Sequence record: PQ821640
From: Escherichia phage SD2
DNA length: 64,000 nucleotides
Direction: 5' to 3' (one strand)
Part shown: one piece after another, positions 14,407 to 18,482 of the stretch
How the letters are laid out: every line of letters begins with the position of its first letter
Position numbering within the stretch: the first letter of the stretch is position 1
Translations under genes and position numbers: made by a program
The notes under the pieces: model-generated
The model's database searches: none
Told to the model about the DNA's origin: nothing
Seen by the model: only the letters and a program-made list of their open reading frames with translations

Positions 14407-14877
14407 TTAGTCAGATTCCCAAATGTTGTCTTTCTTAACCCACATTCGTTGATTATCTGAACCTCTATAACGTTTCGTTGTTGGTTGATTCATATCATAC
14501 TTACCATCTATCACTATGTCAACCAGTTTTTTAATTTTCTCTGGAATTTCTTCAAAAAGATATCCTGTATATAAGACAATATCTTTTTTGTTTCCAAAAC
14601 AATCTCTTACCTTCTCAAGAACATACTCTACAGTGTCAATGTTCTCTTTGTCAAGAGGTTCACCACCTAAAACTGTTAATCCTTTAATGAAAGGTCGAGA
14701 TAAATCTTCCAAGATAAGATCTAATGTTTCAGTAGTGAACTCTTGTCCGTAGTTATACGACCAGGCTTTCTGGTTAAAGCAGCCACGGCAACCGTGGCTA
14801 CAACCGCTCACCCACAAAGAGCATCTTACACCGTCACCGTTGAGCATGTCAACAGGTTCATATCCGGCGTAATTCAA
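14407..14877 (-). CDS. nrdG: anaerobic ribonucleotide reductase activating protein (radical SAM)
   Basis: 156 aa; CSHGCRGC radical-SAM cluster motif; 4-nt overlap with nrdD. Confidence 0.85.
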   Translation of the reverse strand: MNYAGYEPVDMLNGDGVRCSLWVSGCSHGCRGCFNQKAWSYNYGQEFTTETLDLILEDLSRPFIKGLTVLGGEPLDKENIDTVEYVLEKVRDCFGNKKDIVLYTGYLFEEIPEKIKKLVDIVIDGKYDMNQPTTKRYRGSDNQRMWVKKDNIWESD

Positions 14878-15845
14878 AAATGTTTCTCCCTTTCTAGTAC
14901 CTCTTGCATTTTACCTTTATTATAAGGGCGAGAGTTAGGGGCAGAAAGGTATCCTGACACTCTTCTGATCACAGATATGGATTCTTCTTCATGATTACCG
15001 CAACTTGGACACTCGAAGCCTTTAGCCGTTGCTTTAAATTCACCATGAAAACCACATTTGAAACACTGATCTACAGGTTGGTTCACGCCAAAATAAGGAA
15101 TTTTATTGTAGGCATAATCTACAAGAGTTTCCAGTGCTTGCAAGTTATTTTTAAGGTTTGGTGTTTCTACATAACCTATGTTCCCACCATTACTAATTTG
15201 TGCAAAACCTTCCTCATAATCCCACTTTTGGAACGGGGTAGTGTGCATCCATACAGGTTGATGGAAAGAGTTTGTCAAGTAGTCACGATCAATAGAGCCA
15301 GGATAGCGATCATTTAACGCTTTGGCAAATTTATAGCACAAGGATTCTGCTGGTGTTCCATACAAACTAAAAGCTAAACCAGAACGTTCTTTAAATGTGC
15401 AACAGATATCCTTCATATATTGAAGGATGTTTTTACCCATTGCTTTTGGATTGGTGTTGTTTGGGTATAAAATCTCCATAGCTTCTGCTAAACCTACATA
15501 ACCGATACTAATAGAGGCATAACCACCTTCAAATAGTTTACCAATCTCTTCATTAGCTTCTAGTCGAGCTAAAGCCCCTTCCATAAACAATGTAGGGTTT
15601 TGAGATGCTTTGGTATGTCTAATACGGTTAACACGTAGCATATGTGCCTTATACGCCATCTCCATATGTTGTTCCAACAGTTCAGTAAATAAGATGCCCT
15701 TTTCACGGGACTCTGCTGCAATGATAGGTAAGTTTAAAGAAACTACGCCTAAGTTGAAACGACCATCATATTTTTCACCTTGCTCTGTTGCATAGTATGA
15801 CAAGAAACTTCTACACATTATGTTCAAAGTGGCTCGCAAGGCCAC
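14874..15845 (-). CDS. nrdD: anaerobic ribonucleoside-triphosphate reductase, 3' exon (C-terminal half)
   Basis: C-terminal glycyl-radical-like IRRVSGYL, zinc ribbon CFKCGF...CPSCGN; 5' limit is a splice junction not resolved here (track start is GTG). Confidence 0.8.
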   Translation of the reverse strand: MALRATLNIMCRSFLSYYATEQGEKYDGRFNLGVVSLNLPIIAAESREKGILFTELLEQHMEMAYKAHMLRVNRIRHTKASQNPTLFMEGALARLEANEEIGKLFEGGYASISIGYVGLAEAMEILYPNNTNPKAMGKNILQYMKDICCTFKERSGLAFSLYGTPAESLCYKFAKALNDRYPGSIDRDYLTNSFHQPVWMHTTPFQKWDYEEGFAQISNGGNIGYVETPNLKNNLQALETLVDYAYNKIPYFGVNQPVDQCFKCGFHGEFKATAKGFECPSCGNHEEESISVIRRVSGYLSAPNSRPYNKGKMQEVLEREKHF

Positions 15846-16575
15846 TCCCGCACCATTACGTGCTGCTGCATGTCACCATGCAGATCAGACTATATCTTCA
15901 TGCTTAAAGCATGTCTACCATTTGGGGTGTCATAGGCTTACACCCTACGCTGCTACATTCATCACAGCTAGTCGTTAGGCATTTCGTAACAGAACTCATA
16001 ATCATAATTATTTGGTGCTCCGCGCTTTAAGATTGCAGATATTCTTTTTCTGTCCAACCCTAAAGCGTCAGCACAACATCTCAGACTTTTAAAGTAAAAA
16101 ACTTCACCAGTAGCCTTATGAGTAGCTTTTACACTGTGACACCTTGTGTAGAAAGCATAACAGTTATTATCGTAACCCTCTTGCGTGTTGTCTGGACAAG
16201 ATCCCCACTCAAGATTGTATACACTGTTGTCTTTCCTATTGTCACCTTTATGCTTCACATAAGATAAATTGTCTGGATTGGGTAAAAACGCTTCAGCTAC
16301 AAGTCTGTGCACCCGAAAGCAAACAGTTTTCTTGTTTTTACGTATTCTGACAAGTTGGTATCCTGTGTTTATTTCTTCCCACAAGCGAAGGATTCTTTCA
16401 TCCTTATACCTAGTACAATAAACATTTCCAAGCTCGTCAATTTCATACCCTTCAAAATCACGAATTTGTTTTCTCATATCAGTACCCCCTTCTTCTGTGT
16501 TGGGAGTTCTGTTACGTTTAGCACGGGATTGTCTCGTTGAGAGTTCCCCCGTTTAGGCAGATTTTACATGAGCAG
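15846..16575 (-). mobile_element. putative group I intron interrupting nrdD, carrying HNH homing endonuclease ORF
   Basis: nrdD reading frame broken between 16576 and 15845; intervening ~730 nt contains a free-standing HNH ORF and GC-rich structured flanks; boundaries approximate. Confidence 0.6.
15968..16477 (-). CDS. HNH-family homing endonuclease (intron-encoded)
   Basis: 169 aa; YEIDELGNVY, VHRLVAEAF, DNSVYNLEW motifs; RBS AAGGGGG. Confidence 0.75.
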   Translation of the reverse strand: MRKQIRDFEGYEIDELGNVYCTRYKDERILRLWEEINTGYQLVRIRKNKKTVCFRVHRLVAEAFLPNPDNLSYVKHKGDNRKDNSVYNLEWGSCPDNTQEGYDNNCYAFYTRCHSVKATHKATGEVFYFKSLRCCADALGLDRKRISAILKRGAPNNYDYEFCYEMPND

Positions 16576-17442
16576 TTATAGTTTACCCATGCTTGTGACG
16601 CGACCATCTGAAGATCCTGTAACTTCTTTGTTTAAAGGTACAGAGATAAAATCAGGATAAATGCGTTCAGCACAACACTCCATTGCCAGTTGCTTCAAAT
16701 CATAGTTTGGATCACCAGCTTTCATGTTAACACCATCTTCCAAGAAGAAGATAACTTTAGGAAACACAGGAGTTACCCTATCTTTTCCTAATCCTTGTTT
16801 GTGCACCATTAGGTAGTTTTTAGTGATCATTCTACCAAAAGCAGAGGTATCCAAACCTAAACTAATTGTTATAAAAGGTGACTGACCATTTACACTCATT
16901 AGGGTGTTCACCTGGTAGATTAAAGTTTGCATTGCATCATAGACCTGTTTATCTACCATACGCATAGCAATATCATAATCACCAACGTCAGCATAGATTT
17001 TATTAAAACTTGCTTTAACGTATTGACTAAGCCCAGTATCAATATGTGCACAAGTTTGTCCACCATATTGGCTAGAAGCTACTGCTTGAATAATTTGAGT
17101 TAGGACAGTAGTTGCTACACCGATAGATTTTGGTTTTTCAATATGTGCATTACCAATACGGAAACCGTTCTCAAGCATATCTTGGTAATTTACCAGGCAA
17201 CAGTTAGTTAGAGGTGAGAGTAAATAATCTAAATCGTGAATGTGACCATACCCGCTTTTATGCCATTCTGCCAGATCTTCCGGTAAAATATGGGTCATTG
17301 CCATGTGCTTGCTTAGGATACCTGCTAGTAAGTCTCGGTGAGTATTAACAATCATTGCAGGTTTGTTTGCATTTTCACGAGTAAATTCTTCGGATGTTTG
17401 TTCGAGGAATCCGATTACATCCTCATATAGTTTTTGGGTCAT
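16576..17442 (-). CDS. nrdD: anaerobic ribonucleoside-triphosphate reductase, 5' exon (N-terminal half)
   Basis: Start at Met11 of track ORF with GGAGG RBS; class III RNR-like sequence; in-frame stop at 16576 lies in the presumed intron, true exon end slightly upstream. Confidence 0.7.
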   Translation of the reverse strand: MTQKLYEDVIGFLEQTSEEFTRENANKPAMIVNTHRDLLAGILSKHMAMTHILPEDLAEWHKSGYGHIHDLDYLLSPLTNCCLVNYQDMLENGFRIGNAHIEKPKSIGVATTVLTQIIQAVASSQYGGQTCAHIDTGLSQYVKASFNKIYADVGDYDIAMRMVDKQVYDAMQTLIYQVNTLMSVNGQSPFITISLGLDTSAFGRMITKNYLMVHKQGLGKDRVTPVFPKVIFFLEDGVNMKAGDPNYDLKQLAMECCAERIYPDFISVPLNKEVTGSSDGRVTSMGKL

Positions 17443-17460
17443 TAATCCTCCGTGGAAAAT

Positions 17461-17487
17461 AAAAGCCAGCATTAAGCTGGCTTTAGG
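17461..17487 (-). terminator. rho-independent terminator upstream of nrdD
   Basis: AGCCAGCATTAAGCTGGCT hairpin followed on minus strand by TTTTATTTT. Confidence 0.55.
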
Positions 17488-17531
17488 GTGGATCTTTATT
17501 TTAAATCTTTTTCGTAAGATTATCCTTGATC

Positions 17532-18482
17532 TTAGTCAAGGTTTTTGGTAATACGTGTACAACCATCAGAAGTCAAACCGTCAACTTGAGTTTCCCAAGT
17601 ACCATGAATATTTCGGAACAATGTTGTTACACCTTTTGGTTCATTAATAATGATTGCCATAACAAGTTTAGGATCGATAACAGACATAATCTTTTCCTCA
17701 ATACCCTCTGTAATAACATTATTGCGCACAATATTAATTGCATCTTCTTGTACAGTAAGAACACTTACGTTCTTAAGAGTATATACCTGCTGTGTAGTGT
17801 AAATGATACGAACATAACTTACAGAACGAGTAGGCACAGGTTTACGCGGTCGGCGAAAACGTGGTTTTGGTGAAGATTCAGTTTTACTTTCATCTTTTGA
17901 ATAATACTCCTCAAACAGTTTAGTAAATGTTTTTACATCAACTACAAACCGATCTTTCCGATATGGAGAATTCTTATGTGCACCATTAATACCACTGTTT
18001 TCATCGAAGAAAGTAATGTTTTCTTCATTTGAATACATTAGATAATGATCTGCATTTTTCCAATGTGGTTGTGGACAACGAGGATTACAAACGGAAAGCA
18101 GATAACTAATATCTTCTTCCGTGGCATCAGTATCCACGAAACACGTATTATGCACAGTCAGTTGTACTTTTTCAGCCATATCTTTTTCTTTATCCTCTTT
18201 AGCAAGATATTCAGTACGAATAATCTCCAGAAAATTTTCAGGTGTTACTTCCATAAATGTATATTCAGGATGAAGTTCCATATATTCAAATCCACAACCA
18301 TCTAACTGCTGTAGAAAGTTAGGGTAGAAGAACAAATCATTAACACTGTGAATCAGATTATTGATTTCTGCTTCAGTTGTGTAACCAAAACTCTTGTGAA
18401 TTGCTTCGTTAAGAATATGCAGGATACCCATCTCTTCTGCTGCTTTTTTAACTTCCAGTTTATTAGCGTAAAATGCAATCAT
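17532..18482 (-). CDS. hypothetical protein
   Basis: ORF track 316 aa. Confidence 0.5.
   Translation of the reverse strand: MIAFYANKLEVKKAAEEMGILHILNEAIHKSFGYTTEAEINNLIHSVNDLFFYPNFLQQLDGCGFEYMELHPEYTFMEVTPENFLEIIRTEYLAKEDKEKDMAEKVQLTVHNTCFVDTDATEEDISYLLSVCNPRCPQPHWKNADHYLMYSNEENITFFDENSGINGAHKNSPYRKDRFVVDVKTFTKLFEEYYSKDESKTESSPKPRFRRPRKPVPTRSVSYVRIIYTTQQVYTLKNVSVLTVQEDAINIVRNNVITEGIEEKIMSVIDPKLVMAIIINEPKGVTTLFRNIHGTWETQVDGLTSDGCTRITKNLD

Follow-up and report, generated by a model that had tools for sequence, protein, structure and literature searches.

One relative of the element discussed here is the intron of the nrdD (sunY) gene of phage T4, which is both mobile and self-splicing (PMC2988022). 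This intron of 1033 nt interrupts its gene after a stretch ending in ...QAYE, and its open reading frame, located downstream of P9 (in P9.1), codes for I-TevII, an enzyme of the GIY-YIG family. A second point of reference is I-HmuI (PDB 1u3e), an HNH homing endonuclease with a host gene and a target of its own. Closest to our locus stands phage phi92 (FR775895 / NC_023693), where the gp192A entry is labelled 'spliced variant'. The element is therefore already known, its prior recognition resting on this GenBank annotation; in the literature we found no paper describing this particular nrdD intron.

The window, that is, the whole stretch of 64,000 nucleotides analysed here, comes from a phi92-like coliphage (Justusliebigvirus). 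A reading made from the sequence alone had seen in it an nrdD gene cut into two open reading frames by a third one coding for an HNH endonuclease, and had proposed the layout of a group I intron with its homing endonuclease. All three reading frames are present as described, and the layout is borne out by the score of the core (70.6 bits), by covariation and by the likeness of the inserted frame to I-HmuI. We hold it to be highly probable that a mobile intron of subgroup IA, with a core like that of T4 nrdD, splits this class III ribonucleotide reductase gene between Gly286 and the catalytic Cys287 of the finger loop. It is an ordinary mobile element, of a well-known kind. The locus is made of the following features:

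16585..17442, minus strand: nrdD exon 1, codons 1-286, with 3′ end ...T S M G and U as last nucleotide
15816..16584, minus strand: group I intron of 769 nt, subgroup IA architecture (P7.1 and P7.2), from comparison with EC.P2, RF00028 and covariation
15968..16477, minus strand: HNH open reading frame, 169 amino acids, putative I-HmuI-like homing endonuclease, from PDB 1u3e, Pfam and PHROG 59
14874..15815, minus strand: nrdD exon 2, codons 287-599, opening with Cys287 and holding the RRVSGYL glycyl-radical motif and a zinc ribbon
15810..15813, minus strand: three synonymous differences in exon 2 (+3, +4 and +6; TGT AGA versus TGC CGT)
14407..14877, minus strand: nrdG (activating enzyme), given for context, with Pfam Fer4_12 and Radical_SAM, annotated in relatives; it starts with TTG, in a 4-nt overlap with the nrdD stop

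The N-terminal open reading frame of nrdD covers 16576..17472 (minus strand), with its actual start at the ATG at 17442, preceded by GGAGG and in agreement with the annotated nrdD starts of arall, phi92 and EC.P2. The C-terminal one covers 14874..15845 (minus strand). The piece limits first given were correct as limits of reading frames but not of exons, exon 1 ending at 16585 and exon 2 starting at 15815; similarly, the spacer of about 730 nt matches the gap between the two frames (730 nt), not the length of the intron. The Pfam NRDD profile is split contiguously between the two pieces, positions 1-263 falling in the first (E 1e-72) and 264-562 in the second (E 1e-85), which also comprises the Gly_radical domain and the zinc ribbon. 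Once fused, the protein aligns colinearly and over its full length with the structure of T4 NrdD (1h78, E 2e-164), Cys287 facing T4 Cys290. A contiguous NRDD domain, the finger-loop cysteine, the glycyl-radical motif, the zinc ribbon and nrdG located downstream are those of a class III NrdD, and the exons are free of frameshifts and stop codons.

Where, exactly, is the gene interrupted? The intron begins with AAACUAUAAC and ends with ...CAUAAUG, the terminal G being at 15816; exon 1 stops at 16585 (...ATG GGT) and exon 2 resumes at 15815 (TGT AGA...). Excision of 16584..15816 joins GGT|TGT and restores an NrdD of 599 residues, with 100% identity to that of EC.P2, where the gene is uninterrupted. 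The alignment with T4 NrdD suggested as a check also came out in favour, like the other proposed tests at sequence level. The predicted ligated exons read ...AGCAUGGGU|UGUAGAAGU..., and the site lacking the intron, in muut or EC.P2, reads GTCACAAGCATGGGT|TGCCGTAGTTTCTTG. It is because this intron-less allele sets the junction that the 3′ boundary is fixed at 15816. In phi92, the equivalent junction exactly reproduces the deposited protein Phi92_gp192A (CCF23320.1). The break falls within the MGCRSF finger loop, directly before the codon of the catalytic cysteine. The frame of exon 1 meets a stop codon (16576-16578) two codons into the insert; this stop is intronic, and so is the GTG at 15845, which lies within stem P9.2. 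An intein was considered and rejected, in view of this early stop codon and of the start codon and Shine-Dalgarno sequence that the insert possesses.

The ribozyme itself is built as follows, broadly from the 5′ to the 3′ end of the RNA:

16567..16573, minus strand: internal guide sequence GCUCAUG, forming P1 with CAUGGGU of exon 1 (16591..16585); a U.G wobble marks the 5′ splice site
16478..16566, minus strand: 5′ half of the core, from covariation, the minimum free energy (MFE) fold and the phi92 core, identical in sequence, as aligned by Rfam
16561..16556, minus strand: 5′ strand of P3
16552..16547 with 16528..16523, minus strand: P4
16542..16539 with 16535..16532, minus strand: P5
16522..16521 and 16516..16509, minus strand: 5′ strands of P6 and P6a, respectively
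16484..16507, minus strand: P6b hairpin (ACUCCC...GGGGGU), in which the Shine-Dalgarno sequence of the HNH frame is paired
15816..15992, minus strand: 3′ half of the core, from the RF00028 match and covariation
15992..15985 and 15980..15979, minus strand: 3′ strands of P6a and P6, both within the HNH frame
15973..15969 and 15892..15888, minus strand: 5′ strand of P7, overlapping the stop codon of the HNH frame, and its 3′ strand
15968..15949 and 15945..15925, minus strand: P7.1 and P7.2
15919..15914, minus strand: 3′ strand of P3
15913..15899 and 15898..15893, minus strand: P8 and J8/7
15883..15866, minus strand: P9, with a GUGA loop
15863..15850 and 15847..15827, minus strand: P9.1 and P9.2
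15816, minus strand: terminal G

When the whole window was compared with Rfam at gathering thresholds, no match was returned. The 490-nt open reading frame sitting in P6 accounts for this false negative. The gathering score of RF00028 (Intron_gpI) is 50, and the window as it stands remains below it: in E-value mode, the covariance model matches the 3′ half of the core at 15866..15973 with 39.3 bits (E 2e-8). This match includes the exact AUGAAGAUAUAGUCU, and the sequence of J8/7 and P7, AAGAUAUAGUC, fits the consensus exactly. Deprived of its reading frame, the intron of the window is 100% identical to the 279-nt intron of phi92, which reaches the 70.6 bits already mentioned. Control scores account for the difference by the insertion in P6: the T4 nrdD intron gives 105 bits and relatives without a reading frame 70-80, while all forms with a reading frame in P6 lie between 33 and 39. 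The nrdD intron gives the sole group I intron signal of the 64-kb window, which also lacks tRNA genes.

Covariation was measured in a set of six homologues, one of them the T4 nrdD intron, a proven case. It backs P1 and P3 to P9.2: the group I core that had been expected in the spacer is there. Paired cells amount to 94.5%, versus 35-45% when the partners are slid; both sides have changed in 34 of the 79 pairs, and none of 500 shuffles attained the observed values. Compensatory changes are found in P1, P3, P4, P5, P6a, P7, P7.1, P7.2 and P8, the core helices from P3 to P8 each being 92-100% paired with at least one such change. Within P1 the pairs are formed throughout (100%), and a single compensatory change is seen there, in JSE (C-G to G-C); the U.G pair of the 5′ splice site is invariant (6/6), as is the terminal G of the intron. 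The P7 pseudoknot shows a compensatory change of U-A to C-G in TH18, and four of the five pairs of P7.1 have compensatory changes. The MFE fold (z -4.3) independently recovers the same helices, P1 included. We take IA2 to be the subgroup label of this intron in the Michel-Westhof classification. P10 is weak, with at most 2-3 bp in the window, while that of Vibrio phage F97 is a clean 4-bp pairing; with so short a helix we make no claim of a P10 role for the three substitutions of exon 2.

How far does the T4 parallel, put forward from the start, extend? It holds for the ribozyme: host gene and guide GCUCAUG are the same, both introns possess P7.1 and P7.2, and the cores are homologous, being about 70% identical over 78%. 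It does not hold for the rest. The T4 site lies about 112 codons upstream, at a position corresponding to codon 174/175 of the window; the enzyme is GIY-YIG there and HNH here; and the reading frame, in P9.1 there, is in P6 here. The 5′ exon is UAUGAGU in T4 (about codon 175) and CAUGGGU in the window (codon 286/287). A single ribozyme lineage, with an unchanged guide, would thus occupy two nrdD sites with unrelated endonucleases. There is perhaps an even chance that this reflects ectopic transposition to a site fitting the guide, followed by the independent acquisition of an endonuclease, with all the stages of the homing cycle displayed in a single genus: an invasion that crosses subfamilies, the loss of the reading frame on two independent occasions, and sites that are empty.

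Other relatives are nearer. In phi92, which belongs to the same genus, insertion site and splice junction are those of the window, and the endonuclease reading frame has been lost through the deletion of 490 nt between CTG repeats, which spared the P6b hairpin. Phages arall, VEcB and phiWec187 share the complete form found in the window, the frame being annotated there only as 'hypothetical protein' or 'endonuclease'. In hosts of other families or subfamilies – JSE (Krischvirus), the rV5-like HMD-6, JEP1 and navn, and Vibrio phage F97 – an intron occupies the same site (MG|CRS) with an HNH frame in P6. Their cores are 75-90% identical to that of the window, and their HNH proteins 50-90%, the C-terminal EMPND being likewise encoded by the intron core. 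In most public genomes of the window's phage group, nrdD appears as a pair of 'large subunit' genes that flank a 'hypothetical protein'. A single spliced coding sequence with an intron-encoded HNH homing endonuclease would be a better annotation, and the coordinates given here permit the correction, which is the chief practical use of these results.

The protein encoded by the intron has the domain order of its family: a NUMOD4-like N-terminus, an HNH_3 core (H76, N88 and N97) and a C-terminal I-HmuI NUMOD-like helix-turn-helix. It matches I-HmuI over its full length (E 8.7e-9), the two proteins being colinear (174 residues in I-HmuI versus 169) and having in common the N-terminal beta motif, the HNH core and the C-terminal helix-turn-helix; it also matches HNH endonuclease PHROG 59 (E 8e-34). 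With Pfam, HNH_3 scores 22.9 bits for a cut-off of 24.8, and I-HmuI_NUMOD-like likewise falls just below its own. H76, N88 and N97 align with H75, N87 and N96 of I-HmuI and are invariant in five homologues, and D79 is also invariant, across homologues only 50% identical. The metal ligand is another matter, Asp74 of I-HmuI being replaced by Lys75 (K in the coliphage homologues, C in F97). The active site may therefore be rearranged or impaired; on sequence grounds, D79 might stand in for the acidic ligand. Endonuclease activity is a prediction from homology, and nicking is assumed by analogy.

The HNH frame is looped out of P6, and its last seven codons and stop double as P6a′, P6′, J6/7 and P7. 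It has, as first noticed, its own ribosome-binding site, a Shine-Dalgarno sequence (GAAGGGGG) located 6-7 nt 5′ of the ATG. The P6b hairpin that sequesters it has a free energy of -11.3 kcal/mol (z -3.7), and compensatory changes retain the stem in HMD-6 (ACUCCU...AGGAGU, -11.7 kcal/mol). An internal sigma-70 promoter for this frame is unsupported, with 12 promoter-like sites versus 9.8 ± 3.0 expected by chance.

This anatomy suggests the following course of events. The pre-mRNA would fold from P1 to P9.2, and exogenous guanosine would attack after the U of the P1 U.G pair (16585/16584). The freed 3′-OH of exon 1 would then attack after the terminal G (15816), giving ...AUG GGU|UGU AGA..., the mRNA for the 599-residue NrdD; splicing of this kind is what we predict in vivo. 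With the ribosome-binding site of the HNH frame locked in P6b, translation of the endonuclease is probably restrained on the full-length precursor RNA. During mixed infection, the enzyme would cut, probably nick, intron-less nrdD at a position predicted to lie near and downstream of the insertion site, and the recipient would then acquire the intron, along with a small part of exon 2, through repair from the genome that contains it. This is homing.

Could nrdD never be spliced at all? A free-standing HNH gene would then have split it into halves made as two distinct polypeptides that come together post-translationally, as documented for NrdA of Aeromonas phage Aeh1, a gene in pieces split by mobE (PMC3653736, PMC7344957). 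Both halves of nrdD are intact reading frames, listed as two coding sequences in arall, VEcB and nepoznato, and the GTG at 15845 is preceded by GGGAG. We nevertheless find this extremely improbable: the spacer holds a group I ribozyme, complete and covarying, the excision of which restores exactly the protein of intron-less phages, and the break lies inside the finger loop, right before the catalytic cysteine. Furthermore, versions devoid of the reading frame retain the whole 279-nt core, which the insertion of an endonuclease gene alone would not explain. As for a separate translation start at the GTG, we rejected it: buried in P9.2 and with no spacing from GGGAG, it would add 10 residues lacking any counterpart in NrdD. 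Nor do we give any serious credit to the idea that the intron is a decayed relic unable to splice, making nrdD a pseudogene in this phage. Splicing is, to be sure, deduced from sequence, and nrdD is dispensable in aerobic laboratory growth; yet the protein encoded by the exons, without a single frameshift or stop codon, is identical to that of intron-less alleles, and many genomes, belonging to two genera, share an identical core in which every helix is kept.

More subtle is the proposal that the intron splices while its HNH protein has become inactive in homing, the intron being now inherited vertically or mobilized in trans by another endonuclease. Lys75 at the place of a metal ligand, a Pfam HNH_3 score slightly under the cut-off and at least two deletions of the frame within the genus – what one expects once selection lapses – speak in its favour. 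Against it, the frame is full length, its residues H76, N88, N97 and D79 are invariant, and the K/C-H-K/L motif is common to the entire clade rather than a private mutation. The intron with its reading frame is 99% identical across two genera, for exons about 75% identical, which argues for a very recent transfer of the form that contains the frame. An inactive endonuclease is therefore unlikely, and an intron homing by means of its own enzyme remains our preferred reading.

This identity step is worth describing further. Between Justusliebigvirus and Phapecoctavirus, the intron is 99.2% identical and the exons 73.5% and 77%, and the change coincides exactly with the splice sites. Judging from these sequences, mobility looks recent. 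Occurrence of the intron is sporadic: most close relatives lack it, and about 159 records of closely related phages include roughly 23 with it. The HNH frame was lost by two independent deletions that left different remnants. A single genus thus holds empty sites, introns without a frame carrying two deletion scars, and introns with their frame. Our understanding of group I introns is unchanged, but this series has a modest biological value: with its near-identical copy in a second genus, it offers, for coliphages that are not of the T4 group, a convenient means of measuring homing, co-conversion and the decay of endonucleases. Finally, exon flanks were compared over 200 nt per side in six genomes. 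Between Justusliebigvirus alleles with and without the intron, the exons differ consistently at just three positions, +3, +4 and +6 of exon 2, all of them synonymous; the shared tract around the insertion is asymmetric, reaching no more than 6 nt on the upstream side and 38 nt on the downstream side.

At the level of sequence, the reading of this locus as an nrdD gene interrupted by a group I intron with an HNH ORF holds and has good support; as an element, the intron is of an ordinary kind that is annotated already. The 2.9-kb region matches Escherichia phages arall (98.9% identity) and VEcB (98.8%), which belong to Justusliebigvirus, i.e. phi92-like myophages of the Stephanstirmvirinae. The sequence-only reading had described nrdD in two pieces with an HNH ORF between them. 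All three ORFs lie where it placed them:

Reading frames of the nrdD locus
ATG at 17442 behind GGAGG to TAA at 16576-16578, minus strand: N-terminal NrdD piece, start as in the annotation of relatives
16477..15968, minus strand: HNH ORF, 169 codons, Shine-Dalgarno sequence GAAGGGGG 5' of the ATG
15845..14874, minus strand: ORF of the C-terminal NrdD piece

The two NrdD pieces cover contiguous positions, 1-263 and 264-562, of the Pfam NRDD profile; within the second, Pfam also recognizes a zinc ribbon and a glycyl-radical domain, and directly downstream it identifies the NrdG activase. The split is therefore real. The nrdD ribosome-binding site is separated from the preceding gene (17532..18482) by a terminator-like hairpin (17462-17484, minus strand; 9 bp, then a T-run), and the real ATG lies 3' of it, so that the start given for nrdD in a mechanical ORF list, 17472, is 30 nt too far upstream. 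At the other end of the gene, the TTG start of nrdG and the TGA stop of nrdD share 4 nt (TTGA, 14874-14877, minus strand), an overlap that suggests translational coupling of reductase and activase. No tRNA gene was found in the whole 64-kb window.

The junction was set by alignment to the related phage EC.P2, whose nrdD is uninterrupted. Exon 1 ends at 16585 (...ACA AGC ATG GGT) and exon 2 starts at 15815 (TGT AGA AGT...); once the 769 nt of 16584..15816 are taken out, a 599-aa protein 100% identical to EC.P2 NrdD is obtained. Both signals that had been ascribed to splicing, the in-frame stop closing the first piece and the GTG that looks like a start for the second, prove to be intron sequence, the GTG lying inside stem P9.2. 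Alignment of the conceptual fused protein to T4 NrdD, proposed in that same reading, succeeds (structure 1h78, E 2e-164), and Cys287, the first codon of exon 2, falls on T4 Cys290 in the motif MGCRSFLS. We take Cys290 to be the finger-loop cysteine that bears the thiyl radical, and the intron thus sits at one of the most conserved spots of nrdD. Highly conserved gene sites are the usual location of mobile introns (PMC2988022).

At gathering thresholds, Rfam gave no match anywhere in the window. In E-value mode RF00028 matched 15866..15973 (39.3 bits, E 2e-8), with AUGAAGAUAUAGUCU exact at J8/7-P7; there was no second group I signal elsewhere in the 64 kb. In phage phi92 this intron is present in a 279-nt, ORF-less form, to which the window intron becomes 100% identical once 490 nt are taken away. 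The ORF-less core reaches 70.6 bits against a threshold of 50, so that the covariance-model scan that had been called for does detect a group I core. In a control run the T4 nrdD intron, which is established by experiment, gave 105 bits and ORF-less relatives 70-80 bits, while every relative with an ORF in P6 had only 33-39 bits; it is the inserted ORF, then, that brings the window score below the threshold.

The secondary structure, drawn by hand, comprises P1, P3, P4, P5, P6, P6a, P6b, P7 (pseudoknot), P7.1, P7.2, P8, P9, P9.1 and P9.2. Counted over an alignment of six homologues with their ORFs deleted (the window; HMD-6 and TH18, both rV5-like; T4-like JSE; T4; Vibrio phage F97), standard pairs fill 94.5% of the cells; shifting the 3' partners by 1-3 columns lowers this to 35-45%. 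Both-sided changes occur at 34 of the 79 pairs, and in 500 shuffles neither the pairing, nor the tally of pairs or of cells with both-sided changes, nor the covariation score was ever as high as observed. One or more compensatory changes are present in each of P1, P3, P4, P5, P6a, P7, P7.1, P7.2 and P8, the last being always paired though its sequence is entirely different in each lineage. Neither the terminal G nor the U.G pair of the 5' splice site varies. Folding by energy alone, applied to the ORF-less form, gives these helices again (-100.5 kcal/mol, z -4.3). The presence of P7.1 and P7.2 assigns the intron to subgroup IA, like the T4 introns.

Might nrdD simply be an unspliced gene in pieces, as is the case for Aeh1 NrdA? 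The complete, covarying ribozyme, a second half without a usable start and a break point within the catalytic finger loop make this very unlikely. That the exons encode exactly the intron-less protein contradicts a decayed intron or an nrdD pseudogene. The window intron is predicted to splice, and its junction can already be found in public records: in that of phi92 a joined nrdD CDS is labelled 'spliced variant', and conceptual splicing of phi92 yields the deposited protein CCF23320.1, residue for residue. A literature search found no paper with an experimental description of the window intron; splicing of HNH-bearing introns in other genes of related myophages was shown by RT-PCR (PMC7344957), and there is a catalogue of split phage RNR genes (PMC3653736).

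The parallel with T4 nrdD drawn from the sequence alone holds in kind, with a homologous core (~70% identity over 78%) and an identical guide sequence, GCUCAUG, but the two are different elements. The T4 intron is inserted ~112 codons upstream, and its ORF, placed after P9, encodes the GIY-YIG enzyme I-TevII, whereas the window ORF is an HNH one placed in P6. Nearest to the window intron are the nrdD introns of phi92 (core identical), rV5-like phages, JSE and Vibrio phage F97; every one of them shares its MG/CRS site, and those with an ORF encode a homologous HNH protein.

The product of the window ORF aligns along its full length with I-HmuI, an HNH homing endonuclease of the nicking type (PDB 1u3e, E 8.7e-9), and also matches PHROG 59 'HNH endonuclease' (E 8e-34); Pfam HNH_3 and I-HmuI_NUMOD-like both fall just under their cut-offs. 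H76, N88 and N97 are the counterparts of I-HmuI H75, N87 and N96, and are invariant even in homologues of only 50% identity. Just before the catalytic His, Lys75 (codon 16252-16254) occupies the position of I-HmuI Asp74, a metal ligand; every coliphage copy has Lys there, and F97 has Cys. Three residues past the His, D79 is an invariant Asp, and the active site may be arranged in an alternative way. The ORF loops out of P6, enclosed by P6a (CGUAACAG/CUGUUACG), and its final codons (...F C Y E M P N D stop) double as P6a', P6', J6/7 and the P7 5' strand, which is why EMPND is invariant. Its Shine-Dalgarno is paired within hairpin P6b (-11.3 kcal/mol, z -3.7), preserved in HMD-6 via compensatory changes, and no promoter bypassing the hairpin stood above chance; P6b would control the ribosome-binding site.

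Several patterns point to mobility of the intron. Of ~159 phage records whose nrdD is 95% or more identical, 4 contain the intron together with its ORF and 19 contain it without, in approximate counts that include GenBank/RefSeq duplicates; for the others coverage is 73%, the value that an empty site should give. Between Phapecoctavirus nepoznato and the window the intron is 99.2% identical, but exon 1 only 73.5% and exon 2 only 77%, and identity changes precisely where the splice sites are, which points to transfer between genera. Shared exon sequence extends unequally, over no more than 6 nt upstream and no more than 38 nt downstream. We infer the cleavage specificity of the ORF product from sequence, the asymmetry fitting cleavage on the 3' side of the insertion site and co-conversion of a short tract. 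Within Justusliebigvirus, alleles with and without the intron consistently differ only at exon-2 positions +3, +4 and +6 (TGT AGA versus TGC CGT, synonymous), and TGTAGAAGTT also follows the intron in JSE, HMD-6 and TH18. The ORF was lost twice within one genus, with different scars:

Deletion scars of the ORF
L002 (phi92-type intron), 1517-1795: 279 nt; 490-nt deletion between CTG repeats, P6b retained
L007 (AMO3598/PD06/ECGD1-type intron), 1317-1606: 290 nt; last 40 nt of the ORF kept

The endonuclease itself may be inactive, as Lys75 and this repeated loss would have it, but an ORF-containing copy 99% identical in another genus argues for recent activity.

Several related loci deserve mention. 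In F97 (OZ195764; locus L009, 1-741 and 869-3169) the homologous intron with its HNH occupies that site in nrdD, and its P10 is a clean 4 bp (UGCC/GGCA); upstream of an N-terminal nrdD piece that is truncated lies one more gene for an HNH endonuclease, which suggests a second insertion. TH18 (vB_EcoM_TH18, ON075799) has an ORF-less intron at the MG/CRS site and a second interruption of ~260 nt near codon 447 (locus L011, 1918-2182), to which RF00028 gave no match at E <= 1e-3. Among GenBank records MG065639-MG065690, named 'Campylobacter phage' (host C. jejuni), some are 98% identical to window 14700-17600 and others 84% identical to the rV5-like HNH ORF; the host labels look doubtful, or else the phages look like carryover from E. 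coli. Finally, Aeromonas phage phiA009 (OM033134; locus L010) has a strong group I intron of 90 bits at 1829-2108 and a weaker match of 32 bits at 1533-1749, between ORFs annotated only as hypothetical proteins.
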